Of a DNA stretch of 64,000 nucleotides, positions 20,797 to 58,091 are shown one piece after another. Numbering within the stretch: the first letter of the stretch is position 1; every line of letters starts with the position of its first letter. This DNA comes from Chitinophagaceae bacterium. GTDB lineage: Bacteria > Bacteroidota > Bacteroidia > Cytophagales > Cytophagaceae. The stretch spans positions 27,221 through 91,220 of the forward strand of contig JAQBNS010000034.1 of NCBI GenBank assembly GCA_028288405.1, written 5' to 3'. The position numbers and the translations under genes were made by a program. Under the pieces are notes generated by a model. That model searched no databases, was not told where the DNA came from, and worked only from the letters and a program-made list of their open reading frames with translations.

Positions 20797-20831
20797 AAGT
20801 AAGGCTTGCTGTGGATCAGCAAGCCTTACTT
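20797..20831 (-). terminator. putative trp attenuator hairpin (15 bp stem, 5 nt loop)
   Basis: On the minus strand AAGUAAGGCUUGCUG-AUCCA-CAGCAAGCCUUACUU is followed by AUUUAAAA. It lies between the WWW leader ORF and the trpE ATG. The U-tract is weak. Confidence 0.5.
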
Positions 20832-20879
20832 TTATATCTTAATGTATACAAATAGAGGTCGTGTGTCCACCAACTGGAT

Positions 20880-20921
20880 TTATGATTCCCACCACCAATA
20901 TTTGTTTACGTTGTTTGTCAT
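20880..20921 (-). CDS. trpL: trp operon leader peptide MTNNVNKYWWWES
   Basis: Hand translation of the minus strand: ATG ACA AAC AAC GTA AAC AAA TAT TGG TGG TGG GAA TCA TAA. Three consecutive Trp codons, 104 nt upstream of the trpE start. Confidence 0.65.
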   Translation of the reverse strand: MTNNVNKYWWWES

Positions 20922-20938
20922 GTGCTTTATTATTTTTT

Positions 20939-20946
20939 CAAAAATA
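20939..20946 (-). promoter_or_regulatory. Bacteroidota -7 promoter motif TATTTTTG for the trp leader
   Basis: The minus strand reads TATTTTTG (TAnnTTTG), 17 nt upstream of the leader ATG. Confidence 0.4.
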
Positions 20947-50660: not shown

Positions 50661-51080
50661 ATGATTAATATTTCATTACGGGTTTGTTTACAATTGGTTT
50701 TTATTCTCTTTTCTCTGATCTGTTTCAACCATCAAGCTTTCAGTCAAGTAAAACCTAACACTGTCAATGGCATATGGGCAGACTCCAATAGTGCAGCCTT
50801 CACAAATGGTTATGCGATATTCTCGGTAGACGAACACGGAAAGTTGGCTATGACTCATTATGTTGAATTCAATGGGGTTGCGATGGTAGAAAAAGGAATT
50901 GGATTCTGTTCTCACGGCACCTTGAATTATGACGCCATCGTTACCCAAGGAATACCGGGCTGGTCACTTAAAGGACAGCATGTTTTGACTTTATCGGAAG
51001 ACGGGAATACCTTGCGAGGCTACTACAAAGATGAAAAAGGCAATACAGGACCGTTGGTTTTCAAACGCTTACGCCCATAA
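50661..51080 (+). CDS. hypothetical secreted protein
   Basis: Signal peptide ending AFSQ. No domain recognised. Confidence 0.5.
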   Translation: MINISLRVCLQLVFILFSLICFNHQAFSQVKPNTVNGIWADSNSAAFTNGYAIFSVDEHGKLAMTHYVEFNGVAMVEKGIGFCSHGTLNYDAIVTQGIPGWSLKGQHVLTLSEDGNTLRGYYKDEKGNTGPLVFKRLRP

Positions 51081-51764
51081 ACAAACCATTACTACCACAA
51101 CATGATGATGATTTGTCTTTACAAGACATTTGCTATTCCAATGAGATAAAAGAAAAGCCTTCCGTCCAGCATCTATTCATGCGGAGCGGGAGGCTTTATA
51201 TGTTTTGCTTTGAAAATGCTTAAGCGATGCTTGCGGCAAAAATCAGCACAGACAAGAAAATACTAATGAGTGCACTGACAAGATTCAATTTTTTTTTCAC
51301 GTTGGATAAATTAAGCTGTAAAATTTTGGTTTCGCTCTGCCCCTTCGTTGCCTTTTTCACTTGGAAAGGCCTGCTATACAAGGAGTAGTACTTTGATAAT
51401 ACTCAGATTTAATTTGATTATCCTAAGACTTACCACTACTACAAAAAATAATCTTATTCTTACAAAAAAGTTGGTTTAATAACCCATTCGAGGTTTTTGA
51501 GGGATAAATAGAGAGAGATAAAGGCGTGCAATATTATTCTTTATTGAAAAAAACAAACGATGTGTGTAAGAATTGTTTTTTTTTCTTGTATTACTTTATG
51601 AAAAGCATAAACGATGCTTGAAACCCAGTAGGCGTTGTGCGAACAGAGAGAACAATAAAGCTTGATTGATCATATCAGTTTTTGAATGGAATAGGGGGTT
51701 ATTTGAATTTCATTGGTATTGAAATTGTCCTTGTCTTTAAAAAAATCGTACATTATCGGGTATT

Positions 51765-52358
51765 TTGTCCTCACCCTGTAATACGGATGTTATTTTGAAA
51801 TCTAAAGACCAAGACATATTAAGATCGATCAAGAACGGAGATGACCGTAAAGCACTGGAGCAGATCTATAAATCTATGCTCCCGAAAATCAAAAAGCTGG
51901 TCAACGTCGGAACGGAGCGAGAAGAAGATGCTAAGGATATTCTTCAGGAAGCCTTGCTTGTGTTTTATAAGCAGGTGATGACGAATAAATTTGATGAGAA
52001 ATACGAGATAGCCGGCTTCATTTACACGGTAGCAAAAAATCTGTGGCTCAATCAAATTAAGAAGAACCAGCGATTTGTGCAGCTCAACGAAAGTTCTGTA
52101 GCAGACATCAGGGATACCAATATATTGGACCAAATTTCGTTGGAAGAACGAGAAGCACTGGTCAAAAAATTATTTGATCAATTAGACGATAAATGCAAAC
52201 AGCTTCTTACCTATAGTTTATTCGAGGGATTAAACATGAAGGAAGTCGCCGAAAAAACAGGTCACACCAGTGCCAATGCAGCAACAGTAGCCATGCATCG
52301 GTGCAAGAAGTACCTCATGGAACAGGTAAAGAAGTATAAAACTACTTATGTCATTTAG
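51765..52358 (+). CDS. ECF-type RNA polymerase sigma-70 family factor
   Basis: Region 2 (DAKDILQEALLVFYK, FIYTVAKNLWLN) and region 4 HTH (GLNMKEVAEKTGHTSANAATVAMHRCKKYL). Start uncertain (TTG 51765 or TTG 51795). Confidence 0.85.
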   Translation: MSSPCNTDVILKSKDQDILRSIKNGDDRKALEQIYKSMLPKIKKLVNVGTEREEDAKDILQEALLVFYKQVMTNKFDEKYEIAGFIYTVAKNLWLNQIKKNQRFVQLNESSVADIRDTNILDQISLEEREALVKKLFDQLDDKCKQLLTYSLFEGLNMKEVAEKTGHTSANAATVAMHRCKKYLMEQVKKYKTTYVI

Positions 52359-52361
52359 AAA

Positions 52362-53222
52362 ATGAGACCAGAATTCGAAAAATATAGCCTCATCGATAAT
52401 TACCTTGGCGGTAAGCTTTCAGAGCAGGAGAACAGTGCGTTTGAGCAAAGCATGGCAGAAGATTCTTCTTTACGTGAAGAAGTGTTCGATCGTAAAGTAG
52501 TGAATGAAATCCTTATCGAAAAAAGATTCTTTGATATCACCAGCGGACTTCGTACTCCTGCCGGTGTAACACGCACCTTATTCTCTAATTCTGTAAAACG
52601 TTTTGTAGGTATCGGTGCCGCAGTAGCTGTGATCCTCTTTACTCCTTATTATTTCAGTAAACGCGCTGAACAGCCCGTAGAAAACACCAGCGGTCCGGAA
52701 CAAAAATCAGAAGCGGTTGCTCCTGTTATAAAACAACAAGAAGAGCCTAGTCAGGACGTGGTGTTAGAAGAACAAGTACAAGAAAATACAGAAGCAGTAG
52801 AAACAACTCCGGAAGAACAACCTGTTGTTGCAGAAGAAAAAGTAATTGAAAAAACACCCATTGCGAAAAAAGCGACAACAGTAGCTCCTGCTGCCAAGAA
52901 GAAGAAAAAAGCGAAAAGCTACATCCTTGAAATTCCAATCGATGATCCTTCCGCTAAAGGACATCAGGCCAACTCTTATGTGTTTAACCCTGCTAAAGGT
53001 CAAAGCTGGAAAATTCCTATGCACAATCATAAGGAAGCTACGGTTACGATTTTTAACAAAGAAGGAAATGAAGTTTTCACTTCTTCTGTTGAGCAAGGAA
53101 AAAACAATACCTGGAAGGGTACTTCTACTGATGGAACCAAGCAAAAAGCAGGCAAATACGCTTATTTACTTGATTTTGGAAATGGAAAGATTGAGCACGG
53201 ACATGTTACAATTAATCCGTAA
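52362..53222 (+). CDS. anti-sigma-like membrane protein with E/P/Q-rich linker and C-terminal T9SS type-B-CTD-like domain
   Basis: Starts 3 nt after the sigma gene. N-terminal YLGGKLSEQENSAFEQSMAEDSSLREEV is typical of Bacteroidota anti-sigma N-termini. One TM (FVGIGAAVAVILFTPYYF). The C-terminal approx 85 aa align with the CTD of the next gene. Confidence 0.7.
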   Translation: MRPEFEKYSLIDNYLGGKLSEQENSAFEQSMAEDSSLREEVFDRKVVNEILIEKRFFDITSGLRTPAGVTRTLFSNSVKRFVGIGAAVAVILFTPYYFSKRAEQPVENTSGPEQKSEAVAPVIKQQEEPSQDVVLEEQVQENTEAVETTPEEQPVVAEEKVIEKTPIAKKATTVAPAAKKKKKAKSYILEIPIDDPSAKGHQANSYVFNPAKGQSWKIPMHNHKEATVTIFNKEGNEVFTSSVEQGKNNTWKGTSTDGTKQKAGKYAYLLDFGNGKIEHGHVTINP

Positions 53223-53274
53223 ATAATCCATAAATTAGATCCGGACTCTCAGTCGTTTGTACGACAACCCTTTA

Positions 53275-55077
53275 ATGAGTAAAAGATTTTACCGGATCTT
53301 ATCTTTCATTGTTTTTTTTTCTTTCACGCTAGTTGACTCCACGGCACAGCGATTTGCATCTGTGCCTGATAAAACATATAGCGCGCAAGAGGTTAAATCT
53401 CTTGACGCTCTTTCCTCCTCCAAACGAAGCAGTTCCAGAACGACAGCAACCGCCCTAACAGCAACTGTTACTGATGCCAAATGTTTTGGATCTTCTTTAG
53501 GCAAAATCACTTACAGCATCTCAGGAGGTATTCCTCCCTACCGTTATCAATGGAGCAACGGAATCAACGGATACGTTTATGGTAATTGCTGGTACACTAT
53601 AAAAATCACTAATCCCGGTTCCGCAACGCTTACCGATTATCAGGTCATGGTCTCCGTTCCATATGCTTCTGCAGCAGGGATGAATGCTGACTTCTCCAAT
53701 GTTTCTTTTTCTGACACAACCAATACAGTGTCCTACAATTTTTGGAAAGAAAGTGTAAGCAGTAACATCGGTGTCTTTTGGATCAAGATGCCCTCCTTCC
53801 CTCCGGGTGATTCTTACATTAGAGTTTCTTTCTGTTCCACCAGCTCCACCTCACTAAGCAATGGCTTAGCTACATTTGATTATTTTGATGATTTCGATGA
53901 TCAGGACATCAGCGACTGGACACATACCTGCAACGATGTAAATTATCCGGATGAAGTTTGTGATGCCAGTGTGCAACAAGTCAATGGGTCCGATTATGCC
54001 GCACAGCTCAGCAGCTATGCCCATTGCATTGGTGGCACTCCCCCAACTCCCACTGTAGGAGTCAACGATAAACTCTCTAAAAGTATAAGTCTTCCTAACG
54101 GACAATATTGGGTAGATATCAGTTCTAAGTTTCTAGTTTGCCTTAGAACCATCTGCAGTGATTCTGCCCGCATCTATTCCAGGATTTATCTGGACAATGT
54201 TTTCTACTCCGCTTTTTTCTTAGAAAAAAATACAACATGCGGTTGCGCATTATCAGGCTGGACACAGATCAGGGTCAATGGACCGCATATGAATACAGGC
54301 ATTCCCGTTGCCTATGACCTTCGCACAGAACTTACAGATTGCGGAGAAGGAAATATCCAATACGATAATTTTAGAATACGCAAATGGTATGTTGATCCGG
54401 ATGTAGTGATTGACTATCCTAAAACATTACACATCGACAACTTAGTGGCAGGAGATTATACGCTCACCGTAACAGATGGTGAAGGTACAGTGGCAACGGA
54501 AACCTATACGATCCATGGGCCTGATCTTCCGCAGTCCAGCGATTATATTACATGTGGACAAAGCCCTGCTGTACTTAACGCCATAGGCACTTATACTACT
54601 TTTAAATGGTACGATGTACCGAGTGGTGGAAGCAGTCTTTATACAGGAACTACCTATACAACCGATAGCCTGGAGCATGATCAACTGTTTTATCTCACAG
54701 GTGTCGGTATTGACGGCTGTGAGAGTAGTCCCCGAGTTGCGGTAAAAACTACCGTGCTCAATCCTGCCTCTTCCAATGATTGCCTAATCGTGTATACCGG
54801 CATCTCCCCTAATGGAGATGGATTAAATGAAAGTTGGGAAATCAGAGGCATAGAATCTTATCCTCACAACAAAGTGAAACTCTTCGATCGTTGGGGGAAC
54901 ATCGTATTTGAAAAAGAATTCTATAACAACCAGATGGAGACTACCTGGAAGGGGAAATCCAATAAAGGTCTTTCTAAAGGGCAGGATCTGCCCAATGGAA
55001 CTTATTATTACGAAATCGACATTAGAGGTTTAAACAAACCTTTGTCAGGCTTTGTGATCCTTAACAGAGAACAGTAA
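53275..55077 (+). CDS. T9SS type-B (gliding-motility-associated CHU_C) sorting-domain cargo with SprB repeat and DUF2341-like region
   Basis: Start MSKRFYRILSFIVFF. SprB-type repeat CFGSSLGKITYSISGGIPPYRYQWSNG. C-terminal ISPNGDGLNESWEIRGIESYPHNKVKLFDRWGNIVFE...GTYYYEI...GFVILNR. Confidence 0.85.
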   Translation: MSKRFYRILSFIVFFSFTLVDSTAQRFASVPDKTYSAQEVKSLDALSSSKRSSSRTTATALTATVTDAKCFGSSLGKITYSISGGIPPYRYQWSNGINGYVYGNCWYTIKITNPGSATLTDYQVMVSVPYASAAGMNADFSNVSFSDTTNTVSYNFWKESVSSNIGVFWIKMPSFPPGDSYIRVSFCSTSSTSLSNGLATFDYFDDFDDQDISDWTHTCNDVNYPDEVCDASVQQVNGSDYAAQLSSYAHCIGGTPPTPTVGVNDKLSKSISLPNGQYWVDISSKFLVCLRTICSDSARIYSRIYLDNVFYSAFFLEKNTTCGCALSGWTQIRVNGPHMNTGIPVAYDLRTELTDCGEGNIQYDNFRIRKWYVDPDVVIDYPKTLHIDNLVAGDYTLTVTDGEGTVATETYTIHGPDLPQSSDYITCGQSPAVLNAIGTYTTFKWYDVPSGGSSLYTGTTYTTDSLEHDQLFYLTGVGIDGCESSPRVAVKTTVLNPASSNDCLIVYTGISPNGDGLNESWEIRGIESYPHNKVKLFDRWGNIVFEKEFYNNQMETTWKGKSNKGLSKGQDLPNGTYYYEIDIRGLNKPLSGFVILNREQ

Positions 55078-55078
55078 A

Positions 55079-56005
55079 GTGTATTTATATAAAACGTTTT
55101 CGTTTTTCGCTGTAACGCTCACCTTCTTACTGTTTCAAACCGGATACAGTCAGCAAGGTTCTTTGTACTCGCAATATATGTTTAATGGATTGGTACTTAA
55201 TCCCGCCTATGCAGGAAGTCAGGAGTCAATGAGCATCTCCGCTTTGTTCAGGAAACAATGGACAGCTTTGGACGGAAGTCCTTCTACCGGGATCTTCTCG
55301 GCGCACGCTCCATTGAATAATAAAAAAATAGCCTTGGGGCTGCTCTTTGTAAACGACAACATCGGAGTGACACAACAAACAGGCGGTGATCTTATGTATG
55401 CTTATCGGATTTCTTTTTCGGAAACACGTAAATTATCCTTGGGCTTGCAGGCAGGCTTTGCCAGATTATCCTCTCAATACAGCAGCTTGACAGTGAAAGA
55501 TCCCAATGATCCTTCCTTTTCTTCTTCTGGTGCATACAATTACTTGTATTTTGGAACAGGCATTTACTATTCTTCCAAACGGTTTTATGCCGGACTATCC
55601 GCTCCGCATGCCAATCGCATCACACTGGGACAAACTTTTTCAACGGATGAAAATAGCCAAAGCAGAAATTACTTTCTGACCACAGGCTATGTATTCACCT
55701 TGTCACCTTCCTTCAAGCTCAAACCCAGTACACTTATCAAAGCTACCGATGGCTGGTCTTCTCAAATAGATTTTAATTGCACCTTATTGTACGAAGATGT
55801 ATTTTGGATTGGAGTATCTTATCGCACCTTCTCCGCACTTAGCTTTATGGCAAAAGTTCAACTTACCAATCAACTCAGTGCCGGTTATGCTTACGATAAC
55901 GCGTTGGGCGATTTGAGCGTAATAGGAGGAGGTGGGCATGAGTTCATGTTGACTTATAATTTTTCTTTTTTCAAATCTAATACGGTAACCCCACGCGATT
56001 TCTGA
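55079..56005 (+). CDS. PorP/SprF-family type IX secretion system membrane protein
   Basis: Hallmark N-terminus QQGSLYSQYMFNGLVLNPAYAG. About 300 aa beta-barrel pattern. GTG start 1 nt after the cargo stop. Confidence 0.9.
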   Translation: MYLYKTFSFFAVTLTFLLFQTGYSQQGSLYSQYMFNGLVLNPAYAGSQESMSISALFRKQWTALDGSPSTGIFSAHAPLNNKKIALGLLFVNDNIGVTQQTGGDLMYAYRISFSETRKLSLGLQAGFARLSSQYSSLTVKDPNDPSFSSSGAYNYLYFGTGIYYSSKRFYAGLSAPHANRITLGQTFSTDENSQSRNYFLTTGYVFTLSPSFKLKPSTLIKATDGWSSQIDFNCTLLYEDVFWIGVSYRTFSALSFMAKVQLTNQLSAGYAYDNALGDLSVIGGGGHEFMLTYNFSFFKSNTVTPRDF

Positions 56006-56006
56006 T

Positions 56007-58091
56007 ATGAAAGTTAAAGGGTGTATTGTTCTGCTGTTCTTTATTTCAATGTTGAGTAAGCCTCTGCAGGCTCAACATAAAAATATTTTTACGCTGACCC
56101 AAAGTACTTTTAAACAAGCAGAAAAATACTACAGGCAAAATGATTACATGTCAGCCATTACCTTGTATGAGAAAGCCTTGTTAAAAGACAGACGCAGACA
56201 AGGATTGATCAAATTGCGCCTGGCCAATAGTTACCTGATCCTTCACCATACGAAAGAAGCAGAGTTTTGGTACAAAGACATCATGAATACCAAATCTCTG
56301 ATCGGTAAACAAGATGTCATGAACTATGCGATGATTCTGCTGTCCAACAAAAAATACGAAGCCAGTAAAGCATGGTTTGAGCATTATATTAAAGAATACG
56401 GCACAGATAGTTTAGTCTTGGGTAAAATAAAGGGTATCGATCAAATCGCTTCGTATTATGAAGACTCCTTGAGTAAACCTATTCATGCTTTGTCCATTAA
56501 TACTTCCTATTCTGAATTCAGTCCGGTGTTTTTCGGTAAAGGAATCGTTTTTACTTCCTCCCGGCAGGCAGAAAGCGTCGTAAAATTGAACAACGCCAAA
56601 GACAATAAAGCTTTTCTGGATTTGTACTACAGTGAGTTTAAAAAAGACCAAACATTGTCTGAGCCCAAACCCTGGCATCATGCGATCAATAGTAGCTATC
56701 ACGAAGGGCCCATTGTTTTTTACAGCAACGACACTAAAGCAATCTTCACGCAAAACTTTTCGCTCGAAAAAAAACAAGAGAAAATTGATACGCGTCATTT
56801 AGGATTATTCAGCATAGAGAAGGAAGGTGAAAACAATTGGAGTGAAGCCGTGTCTTTACCTTTTAATAAGGCGAATTATTCCGTGGCACATGCTGCCATC
56901 AGTCAAGACGGCAAGCTGCTTTACTTTGCCTCCAACAAACCCGGAGGCTATGGAGGCACAGACCTTTACACGACACGGTACAACGGTACAGCATGGGATG
57001 AACCCATTAACCTCGGACCATCCATTAACACCTCCGGTAACGAGTTGTTCCCTTATCTTCTTCTGGATAGTATTTTATATTTCTCTTCTACCGGTCATGC
57101 CGGACTGGGAGGACTTGATATCTATCGCACCTCCTCTTGCACAACAGGATTTTGTGAGCCGGAGAATCTTGGTTATCCGATCAACTCCAACCAAGATGAT
57201 TTTGGAATCGTGTTCGCCCCTACTTATAAATCCGGCTACTTCAGCAGCAACAGAATTAACGGAGGCAGCGACGACGACTTGTTTGCTTTTGAAATCATCA
57301 ACGTCTACTTCAAAGGAAACATCAAGGCTAAGTTGAAGAGCGTTCCCCTTGCTGATGTCACGTTGAGCTTTTCATTGAAAGACAAAGAAGTAAAAACAGC
57401 GAAGACCAATGAACGCGGAGAATTTTTAGTCGTGTTAGATCCGAGCGAAGAGTATACGTTGTCAGTCTTTAAAGAAACATTCAAACCATACACTACCAAA
57501 ATTTCCACCAGACACCGCAGCGAGGCGGATAGCATCACACAAGAAATTCTATTGGAAAAAGAAGTGAAGACCTTAGTCAAGGGTGTCGTCAATCAAAACG
57601 ATAGCGTAGTGACTAAATTGAAAATTATCGCACTGGAAACTTCTTCTAAACATCAGGACACGATCTTCTCGGATGAGAAAGGAGAATTTTTTTATGAAGC
57701 AGATCCAGGATTGGAATACTATTTCTATGTAGATACCCGCTATTCGTTTGGAGATGTTTTATTGGAGCCCAGCAAAAAAACGAAAGGAACTTTCCTTTTG
57801 TATACAAAAATAGAATTGCACAACTACGACACCACTTTTGTAAATGTATTGGTAAAAGATAAAAATCTACCGGCTGCTAATGCCTTGGTCGTATTAGAAA
57901 ATACGGTGACGCAGAAAAGAGACTCACTCTATACCAACAAAAAGGGCATGATCCGTTTTGTCGCAAAATCTTATGCGGACTATAACATCAGCAGTCGCTT
58001 AAAAAATAAGCATGCTACACTTTCTGATTTTAATTTGTTGACCAACCGGGTGAGGACATTGGTGCTGCACCTTAAGGAAGAAGAGGAATAA
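56007..58091 (+). CDS. TPR / TolB-like PD40 beta-propeller / carboxypeptidase-regulatory-like domain protein
   Basis: N-terminal TPR-like helices. Repeated PD40-type motifs (SEFSPVFF, HEGPIVFYSND, DGKLLYFASNKPGGYGGTDLY, GLGGLDIYR). The C-terminal beta-sandwich repeats lack an obvious OmpA domain. Confidence 0.7.
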   Translation: MKVKGCIVLLFFISMLSKPLQAQHKNIFTLTQSTFKQAEKYYRQNDYMSAITLYEKALLKDRRRQGLIKLRLANSYLILHHTKEAEFWYKDIMNTKSLIGKQDVMNYAMILLSNKKYEASKAWFEHYIKEYGTDSLVLGKIKGIDQIASYYEDSLSKPIHALSINTSYSEFSPVFFGKGIVFTSSRQAESVVKLNNAKDNKAFLDLYYSEFKKDQTLSEPKPWHHAINSSYHEGPIVFYSNDTKAIFTQNFSLEKKQEKIDTRHLGLFSIEKEGENNWSEAVSLPFNKANYSVAHAAISQDGKLLYFASNKPGGYGGTDLYTTRYNGTAWDEPINLGPSINTSGNELFPYLLLDSILYFSSTGHAGLGGLDIYRTSSCTTGFCEPENLGYPINSNQDDFGIVFAPTYKSGYFSSNRINGGSDDDLFAFEIINVYFKGNIKAKLKSVPLADVTLSFSLKDKEVKTAKTNERGEFLVVLDPSEEYTLSVFKETFKPYTTKISTRHRSEADSITQEILLEKEVKTLVKGVVNQNDSVVTKLKIIALETSSKHQDTIFSDEKGEFFYEADPGLEYYFYVDTRYSFGDVLLEPSKKTKGTFLLYTKIELHNYDTTFVNVLVKDKNLPAANALVVLENTVTQKRDSLYTNKKGMIRFVAKSYADYNISSRLKNKHATLSDFNLLTNRVRTLVLHLKEEEE

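Follow-up and report, generated by a model that had tools for sequence, protein, structure and literature searches.

Why would an anti-sigma factor end in a relative of the C-terminal domain (CTD) that marks proteins for the T9SS (type IX secretion system)? This question is raised by an open reading frame (ORF) at 52362-53222 (+) in a 64,000-nucleotide stretch of a Chitinophagaceae contig (JAQBNS010000034.1), here called the window; coordinates refer to this stretch and residue numbers to the 286-residue product. The ORF starts with ATG, 3 nucleotides (nt) past the stop codon of an extracytoplasmic function (ECF) sigma factor gene, and its product is, judging from gene position, predicted topology and family relationships, very likely the single-pass anti-sigma factor of the sigma encoded just upstream. 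Across relatives, gene order shows a conserved module made up of the sigma factor, the anti-sigma factor, an outer-membrane shuttle of the PorP/SprF family and at least one adhesin-like cargo that bears a CTD. We propose, with about even confidence for and against, that this module signals across the envelope, with the C-terminal domain of the anti-sigma factor reading the state of the shuttle and so governing the sigma factor.

A predicted single-pass anti-sigma factor

The original prediction, made from the letters of the DNA, described an anti-sigma-type N-terminus, one transmembrane helix, a low-complexity linker of about 100 residues and a C-terminal domain of about 85 residues. Our analysis bears out each part of this plan, which is the same in 83/83 aligned family members. 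The N-terminal domain carries a motif conserved among relatives (MRPEFEKY..IDNYL..LS..E..AFE), and an AlphaFold2 model based on 27 homologues places helices at residues 3-15, 21-33 and 35-61, with a predicted local distance difference test (pLDDT) score of about 80-90, disorder over residues 54-201 and a confident beta-sandwich at residues 204-284. The position of the protein, its topology and the relationships of its N-terminal family all agree with an anti-sigma role. Profile matches to known anti-sigma factors are weak: the NCBIfam model NF052375 ('antisigma') aligns with residues 12-41 at E=0.005, its 16.8 bits falling short of the cutoff of 100, and is matched at E<=1e-3 by 5/83 relatives. 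Searches with the N-terminal domain returned no anti-sigma match from Pfam and no sequence homologue from the PDB.

Topology was predicted from hydropathy and the positive-inside rule across the 83 members. A conserved hydrophilic domain of about 80 residues precedes the sole transmembrane segment, at residues 81-99 of the window protein, and this only hydrophobic stretch begins at residues 72-85 in 83/83 relatives. Hydropathy revealed neither a further hydrophobic segment nor a signal peptide at the N-terminus, where the first 30 residues are hydrophilic. Because positive charges favour the N-terminal flank of the helix (lysines plus arginines outnumber those of the C-terminal flank in 47 of 83 relatives and are fewer in 16; net charge +1.7 versus +0.1), we predict an N-in/C-out orientation. 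Beyond the helix, residues about 100-203 have pLDDT below 50 and form a linker whose length is kept and whose sequence varies among relatives, with a conserved KSYILEIPIDDPSAKG segment at its C-terminal end. Across the family the spacing between helix and C-terminal domain has a median of 177 residues, and many members of the wider family carry a SprB repeat at the linker position.

A C-terminal domain related to type-B secretion signals

The last 83 residues, modelled as the beta-sandwich, match Pfam CHU_C (PF13585) over residues 213-283 from profile position 15 onwards; at 41.6 bits (E=1.4e-10) the match clears the gathering score of 27. The type-B model TIGR04131 gives 20.2 bits against a cutoff of 35, so that the match to type-B hidden Markov models (HMMs) anticipated in the original prediction was obtained with Pfam and missed with TIGR04131. 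When a profile of 83 family C-terminal domains was compared with one of 9 cargo type-B CTDs, hhalign reported 98.7% probability (E=2.5e-16, 78 columns), against 1.5% for a reversed control, and on this profile evidence the homology of the anti-sigma domain with type-B CTDs is solid. CHU_C is matched by 81/83 relatives and is the best-scoring family there, and 36/83 match TIGR04131 at E<=1e-3; 43/83 also match FlgD_ig and 10/83 the type-A CTD model. The window protein itself reaches 23.6 bits with FlgD_ig (PF13860; E=5e-5), under the gathering score of 27, and has a weaker type-A CTD match. Foldseek against the PDB returned generic beta-sandwiches only (FlgD, PorU CTD, NucA CTD), none at E<=1e-3. 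Together with the PDB sequence search it picked out Ig domains of FlgD, whose structures rank among the best matches, CTDs of PorU and NucA, and the C-terminal end of GhpA, an Aureispira T9SS substrate, which fits membership of a CTD/FlgD-Ig superfamily and suggests a relationship at that level only.

The domain had also been described as matching the CTD of the neighbouring cargo motif for motif, and as a copy of a type-B sorting domain or a decoy. Of the five blocks conserved in cargo type-B CTDs, four are indeed retained (I.N..G..VY, W.G....G, G.Y.Y and G.vTI), whereas the most conserved cargo block, PNGDGxND, has become P..GE.W..P with a 3-residue deletion. Because that block is replaced, the TIGR04131 score is under its cutoff and identity to the neighbouring cargo CTD is 30% over 82 residues (E=5e-4), 'copy' was an overstatement. 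The window domain scores 105.5 bits with an HMM of its own subfamily and 30.8 with a cargo-CTD HMM; the neighbouring cargo CTD scores 111.8 bits with the cargo HMM and 30.9 with the subfamily HMM. In local alignments the anti-sigma domains of distant loci score 110-210 with one another and 33-93 against any cargo CTD, and a matrix of anti-sigma domain versus cargo CTD scores showed no cognate enrichment. Given the 30% identity, the absent cognate enrichment and the clustering of the anti-sigma domains with one another, we rejected the idea that the domain was recently copied from, or mimics, the CTD of the neighbouring cargo. The domain belongs to an old, separate CHU_C subfamily and is a paralogue of the cargo CTDs.

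Size and annotation of the family

Close homologues number 28, at identities down to 40%, and all have a precomputed PF13585 match. A profile search that covered 1.84 billion cluster representatives retrieved 1495 at E<=1e-3 and 537 at E<=1e-10; nearly all of the best 150 matches are 260-410 residues long and are aligned at their extreme N- and C-termini. Two subtypes can be distinguished, one of about 300 residues and one of about 365 residues in which a four-cysteine SprB repeat is inserted before the C-terminal domain. A genome scan with a narrow N-terminal pattern yielded 3 loci, all from the close clade, and a profile search of a word-indexed protein database reached few distant members. 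NCBI labels a Fulvivirgaceae (Cytophagales) member 'gliding motility-associated C-terminal domain-containing protein', and the other members with a source name are labelled 'hypothetical protein'. Because of these annotations, in silico surveys would count the family as T9SS cargo, which its members almost certainly are not. The anti-sigma family with a CHU_C-like domain is large and apparently undescribed.

Linkage to ECF sigma factors and PorP/SprF

An ECF sigma gene adjoins the anti-sigma gene in 12/12 contexts of the first round, and the same holds for every high-scoring sigma locus whose flanks are long enough; the two genes, 3 nt apart in the window, overlap by 4 nt in most relatives. 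On the 3' side of the anti-sigma gene in the window follow, at gaps of 1 to about 50 nt, genes for a 606-residue cargo, the PorP/SprF protein and a PorE-like protein. This five-gene order is kept in four close relatives, including one of 48% identity with different flanks, and a cargo orthologue follows the anti-sigma gene in L001, L004, L005 and L006. Distant members (20-30% identity) have an ECF sigma gene directly upstream, a PorP/SprF gene and a CTD-bearing adhesin-like cargo in 8/8 cases. Their PorP/SprF gene is usually divergent and 150-400 nt away, and their cargoes include LRR, Ig, Reelin-like and DUF8202 proteins. A PorP/SprF gene was found in every module locus examined, and the module sigmas form a coherent group with 33-52% identity.

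For a linkage test, 80 metagenomic loci were chosen by sigma similarity alone and annotated with custom HMMs. The sigma profile split them into 9 loci at >=166 bits and 71 at <=146 bits, and the counts that follow are of loci with enough flanking sequence. A CHU_C-like domain is present on the protein after sigma in 5/5 high-scoring and 0/37 low-scoring loci (Fisher p=1.2e-6), and PorP/SprF lies within 3.5 kb in 7/7 and 1/47 (Fisher p=4.5e-8). The sister-group sigmas score 108-146 bits with the module-sigma HMM, and the proteins encoded after them often combine the same N-terminal domain with a trypsin-like protease, TPR or other periplasmic parts. This shared N-terminal domain behind related sigmas supports the anti-sigma assignment. 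The near-complete absence of both the CHU_C-like domain and PorP/SprF from the sister group shows that these two travel specifically together. We regard a functional coupling of the anti-sigma factor to PorP/SprF as quite probable. The original prediction had named three findings that would speak against it: no type-B profile match, a cytoplasmic C-terminus and a sporadic distribution. What we find is a CHU_C match, a C-terminus predicted to be periplasmic and an architecture tightly linked to ECF sigma and PorP/SprF genes.

Among the sister-group anti-sigma factors, those of L029 and L041 (ORF after sigma, about 365 residues) and of L031, L042, L069 and L072 (about 250 residues) join the shared N-terminal domain either to TPR repeats or to a periplasmic trypsin-like serine protease domain (GTGFA...NYHV...GNSGGP). 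Anti-sigma factors that carry their own protease domain may deserve separate attention.

Modules of the divergent layout share a further protein of about 385-400 residues (31% identity, E=2e-44; L013:3938-5146 (-) and L014:463-1614 (-)), which probably also occurs at L016:1-344 (-) and, in the P0086 context, as a 386-residue gene. Besides a SprB-like repeat it contains a C-terminal domain that is a third, highly diverged CHU_C/FlgD-Ig-like type, under the Pfam threshold and at about 30 bits to the cargo-CTD HMM, and it is probably a small T9SS substrate. The anti-sigma domain does not mimic the CTD of this protein, local scores between them (25-72) being no better than those with other cargo CTDs. 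PorP/SprF genes are normally paired with type-B substrates; in two loci the large LRR/Ig cargo by PorP/SprF carries a type-A CTD (Por_Secre_tail; L014:1619-6226 (-) and L016:363-7307 (-)). The idea that the anti-sigma factor is the sole CHU_C-like protein in these type-A-cargo loci was dropped, given the roughly 390-residue protein in L014 and a truncated L016 gene with a faint CHU_C match.

A promoter motif before the sigma and cargo-side genes

Module loci share a bipartite element, [G/T]GTTAC-N16/17-TGT[A/C], 25-50 nt upstream of the sigma start. With at most one mismatch, GTTAC-N15-18-TGTA occurs within 90 nt upstream of sigma in 8/14 module loci, whereas 500 shuffles gave an expectation of 0.64 and a maximum of 4. 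In most of the remaining loci a variant longer by one base, GTT[T/C]AC, can be seen by eye, and none was seen in L017. Sister-group sigmas have a similar GGGTTACC-N16-[CT]GTAT upstream, as expected if members of this ECF clade use the motif as their autoregulatory promoter. In the divergent loci an exact second copy is found just past the PorP/SprF stop codon, before the first cargo-side gene, in 5/9 cases (0.63 expected; 5 reached in 0/1000 shuffles). In L014 and L016 the gene behind this copy encodes the large cargo, and in L013 it encodes the roughly 390-residue protein with a CTD, after which comes the cargo; in L020 the longer variant stands before the first cargo-side gene. No exact copy was found in front of PorP/SprF in the divergent loci. 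Since the motif precedes sigma and the cargo-side gene and not PorP/SprF, its placement indicates that the sigma factor very probably drives its own gene and the cargo-side genes, with PorP/SprF expressed independently in the divergent loci. Counted over whole loci the motif is only modestly enriched (6 observed, 1.9 expected); the promoter signal lies in its position. Upstream of the window sigma gene two adjacent candidates can be recognized (Table 1), and 51716-51770, which contains the second of them, is the best conserved upstream block among the window, L005 and L012.

A proposed signalling mechanism and its alternatives

Type-B CTDs are bound by PorP/SprF proteins, which keep them at the surface and in some cases are linked through PorE to the cell wall (PMC9143113). 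According to PMC12618676, shuttles are cognate and limiting, are needed in stoichiometric amounts with cargo and apparently are not recycled. Because the sensor domain is a relative of the signal that shuttles recognize and a shuttle gene lies beside its gene in every module locus examined, a device resembling cell-surface signalling is the most economical reading. In this mechanism, the CTD-like domain on its long flexible linker would dock from the periplasm onto the PorP/SprF protein of its module, and the state of that shuttle (free, cargo-loaded or translocon-engaged) would set whether the anti-sigma factor retains the sigma factor. Freed sigma would then activate its own promoter and the cargo-side promoter, matching cargo synthesis to shuttle availability. 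We consider direct binding of the domain to PorP/SprF as the mechanism to be about as likely as not, and we infer which way the signal runs and that regulated proteolysis brings about release.

Several observations weigh against this proposal. The C-terminal domain is under the TIGR04131 cutoff, shows no co-variation with its cognate cargo CTD and yields generic beta-sandwich matches only in the fold search, and the N-terminal domain is without a solved or strongly scoring anti-sigma homologue. Because PNGDGxND is gone and the TIGR04131 cutoff is failed, the domain may not be recognized as a cargo CTD would be. The location of PorP-bound CTDs is believed to be the cell surface, which a domain tethered to the inner membrane would reach only via the translocon or the barrel lumen. 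Furthermore, no convincing internal terminators were found among the five co-directional genes of the window clade, which look like an operon in which PorP/SprF would be sigma-dependent, unlike in the divergent loci.

The T9SS might instead treat the domain as a secretion signal, as in the original prediction: capture by the shuttle at the SprA translocon would pull on or expose the tethered anti-sigma factor and lead to its cleavage or extraction, in a manner reminiscent of FlgM. Such a pseudo-substrate would be expected to resemble what we see in several respects: a domain homologous to type-B CTDs, at the extreme C-terminus as in substrates, retaining 4/5 conserved blocks, tightly linked to PorP/SprF and carried on a long disordered linker (family median 177 residues) that could span the periplasm. 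It sits poorly with the loss of PNGDGxND, which we take to be one of the five type-B motifs that PMC12618676 reports as all necessary for secretion, and with that paper's report that type-B secretion needs up to 150-235 residues, compared to 83 folded here. The TIGR04131 score under cutoff and the divergence of the subfamily as its own clade, not tracking cargo CTDs, also argue against it. We find this reading rather unlikely, and are similarly doubtful of its outcome, in which sigma would be freed only when the secretion apparatus is competent. In a variant that we put forward just as tentatively, the module's own PorP/SprF would capture the domain at the translocon, and a pull or an exposed cleavage site would destroy the anti-sigma factor. 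If true, adhesin genes would be on only in the presence of an empty, competent shuttle-translocon pair, a FlgM-like T9SS checkpoint present in hundreds of environmental Bacteroidota lineages.

The domain could also act as a periplasmic sensor that binds cargo, for example through the cargo's CTD or SprB/Ig domains, and reports secretion stress or gives feedback by detecting cargo that builds up in the periplasm or is not exported, with no contact to PorP/SprF. It is well established that anti-sigma systems for envelope stress can sense proteins left unassembled (RseA/DegS); the sigma motif precedes cargo-side genes, so feedback from cargo levels would be sensible, and many family members carry a cargo-like SprB repeat. 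However, the cargoes vary from locus to locus (SprB/DUF2341, LRR, Reelin-like or DUF8202, with type-A or type-B CTD) whereas the anti-sigma domain and PorP/SprF are constant, and anti-sigma and cargo CTDs show no cognate similarity. We judge a cargo sensor unlikely.

Another option is that the domain is a generic FlgD-Ig/CTD anchor or spacer, contacting peptidoglycan, the PorE-like protein or another envelope part, with a signal unrelated to the T9SS and the neighbouring T9SS genes merely its regulon. The FlgD_ig (43/83) and type-A CTD (10/83) matches, the generic beta-sandwiches returned by the fold search and the unrelated domains carried by sister anti-sigma factors, which imply that this position is modular, are all compatible with it. 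Against an anchor stand CHU_C as the best-scoring family in 81/83 and the co-occurrence of the domain with PorP/SprF (7/7, compared to 1/47 in the sister group). The lack of a sigma motif in front of divergent-locus PorP/SprF likewise suggests that it is not a mere regulon member there. This reading seems improbable to us. Lastly, that the protein is no anti-sigma factor but a small T9SS substrate or membrane protein happening to follow a sigma gene, as the weak anti-sigma HMM matches and the NCBI name of a relative (given only for its gliding motility-associated C-terminal domain) might suggest, is very hard to credit given the missing signal peptide, the conserved 80-residue hydrophilic domain before the only transmembrane segment, the translational coupling to sigma in every locus and the N-terminal domain common to proteins after related sister-group sigmas.

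Relation to known systems

The proposed signalling module resembles FecI/FecR/FecA and the SusC-linked ECF systems of Bacteroides polysaccharide utilization loci in combining an ECF sigma factor, a single-pass anti-sigma factor that is co-transcribed with it and has its C-terminal domain in the periplasm, and a linked outer-membrane beta-barrel, and in an autoregulated sigma that drives linked envelope genes. In FecR systems the barrel is a TonB-dependent transducer that carries a signalling domain at its N-terminus, whereas here it is PorP/SprF (PF11751). The anti-sigma factor is also without FecR (PF04773) and DUF4974 domains (no Pfam or NCBIfam match at E<=1), and its sensor domain is homologous to a secretion signal.

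With T9SS type-B substrates (SprB-SprF, Fjoh_3952-Fjoh_3951 and PG1035-PorP-PorE; PMC9143113, PMC12618676) the anti-sigma factor shares a homologous beta-sandwich at the extreme C-terminus, a linked PorP/SprF gene and, in the window clade, a PorE-like gene. It differs in having no Sec signal peptide, an inner-membrane tether and a fusion to an anti-sigma domain, and its C-terminal domain belongs to a separate subfamily (105 versus 31 bits) with no PNGDGxND and a score under the TIGR04131 cutoff. FlgM, the inhibitor of sigma-28, offers an analogy in concept only, as an anti-sigma factor carrying an element recognized by a secretion apparatus and tying substrate expression to secretion competence; FlgM is soluble and exported by the flagellar type III system, whereas the module protein is membrane-anchored and belongs to unrelated families and another system.

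In Porphyromonas gingivalis, PorA-PorXY-SigP is the one known case of a CTD protein signalling to an ECF sigma factor, and like the module it feeds T9SS information to that sigma through a CTD-bearing protein (PMC7712824, PMC12152298). PorA, however, is a secreted surface protein whose signal passes via a two-component system, and no cognate anti-sigma factor belongs to SigP; in the module the CTD-like domain lies inside the anti-sigma factor and the target is apparently cargo, not T9SS core genes. The sister-group ECF sigma/anti-sigma pairs are similar in N-terminal motif, transmembrane position and promoter style and differ in their periplasmic parts, which are trypsin-like protease, TPR and others, with a CHU_C-like domain in 0/37.

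In agreement with the original prediction, which knew of no such anti-sigma factor, we found neither the architecture nor its linkage described in the ECF reclassification paper or the T9SS literature searched, a search that covered few subscription journals and in which absence is not proof. What appears to be new in this ECF sigma/anti-sigma trans-envelope module is its sensor domain and the class to which its outer-membrane partner belongs. It would extend trans-envelope signalling to a further class, with a secretion shuttle as outer-membrane partner in place of a TonB-dependent transducer, and would provide the second anti-sigma factor, after FlgM, built around a secretion-system recognition element. 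Regulation of T9SS output outside Porphyromonas is largely unknown among Bacteroidota, and PMC12618676 shows the need for stoichiometric cognate shuttles and not how the balance is achieved. The family would offer a concrete, testable answer in the form of an ECF sigma/anti-sigma pair, a signal-derived sensor, a linked shuttle gene and a recognizable cargo-side promoter.

Features of the locus and neighbouring genes

Table 1. Features of the sigma/anti-sigma locus in window coordinates.
Feature	Position	Strand	Basis or remarks
Candidate ECF-type autoregulatory promoter region	51695..51752	+	two adjacent candidates
Promoter candidate 1, GGGGTTAT-N17-TGAAAT	51695-51724	+	less conserved; not conserved in L012
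Promoter candidate 2, TTGTCC-N16-CGTA	51725-51750	+	better conserved; unique in window
ECF sigma factor (probable start)	51795..52358	+	Pfam Sigma70_r2 and Sigma70_ECF; TIGR02937 66 bits; custom sigma HMM 277 bits
Anti-sigma factor, predicted cytoplasmic N-terminal helical domain, residues 1-61	52362..52544	+	conserved motif and AlphaFold2 helices
Anti-sigma factor, predicted single transmembrane helix, residues 81-99, N-in/C-out	52602..52658	+	hydropathy, positive-inside rule
Anti-sigma factor, predicted disordered periplasmic linker, E/K/A/V/P/Q-rich, residues 100-203	52659..52970	+	pLDDT below 50
Anti-sigma factor, C-terminal CHU_C-family (type-B-CTD-like) beta-sandwich, residues 204-286	52971..53219	+	Pfam, hhalign, pLDDT 80-90
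T9SS cargo, adhesin-like	53257..55077	+	SprB repeat, DUF2341, Ig_7 and bona fide type-B CTD
PorP/SprF-family outer-membrane shuttle	55079..56005	+	PF11751 260.7 bits; TIGR03519 263 bits (cutoff 90.55)
PorE-like periplasmic protein	56007..58091	+	TPR, PD40 beta-propeller and CarboxypepD_reg; conserved in narrow clade

The mechanical ORF of the sigma factor begins at TTG 51765 and would encode 197 residues. Because relatives are 187-190 residues long and align from there, translation probably starts at TTG 51795, giving 187 residues (MKSKDQDIL...). Region 4 of the window sigma contains two cysteines (DDKCKQLL and HRCKKYL; 52188-52310) that are invariant in 8/8 aligned module sigmas, C134 and C170 in the numbering of alignment A7, and could possibly be a metal or redox site.

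The CTD of the neighbouring cargo scores 82.7 bits with Pfam CHU_C and 49.8 bits with TIGR04131, exceeding the cutoff of 35, and the cargo probably starts at ATG 53275. The PorE-like protein reaches 245 bits with NF052230 (T9SS_PorE), under the cutoff of 600, and aligns with positions 19-499 of the 648 in that model only; Pfam and NCBIfam detected no OmpA_C domain in it. Its C-terminal 179 residues are extra CarboxypepD_reg/MG4-like beta-sandwiches. An OmpA_C-like peptidoglycan-binding domain is reported to be essential for PorE function in P. gingivalis (PMC12773672).

Upstream of the sigma gene, beyond a gap of about 700 bp, lies a gene for a 139-residue protein (50661-51080, +) with a predicted signal peptide and no Pfam match. 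In close relatives this gene stands beside the module, next to a gene for a CAP-domain protein, a position that is not kept in L001. The gap holds a small ORF (51220-51300, -) for a 26-residue hydrophobic peptide, (M/V)KKKLNLVSALISIFLSVLIFAASIA, whose DNA is conserved in L005 and L012 and at which a JGI relative has a called gene of 30 residues. A block at about 51400-51470 (AGATTnAAT-TTGATTA ... CTACTACAAAAAA ... TTCTTACA) is kept even in the 48%-identity relative L001. Elsewhere in the window, the sole Rfam hit is RF01692, a Bacteroidete tryptophan peptide leader RNA, at 20818-20944 (-), with 53 bits compared to a gathering score of 49.

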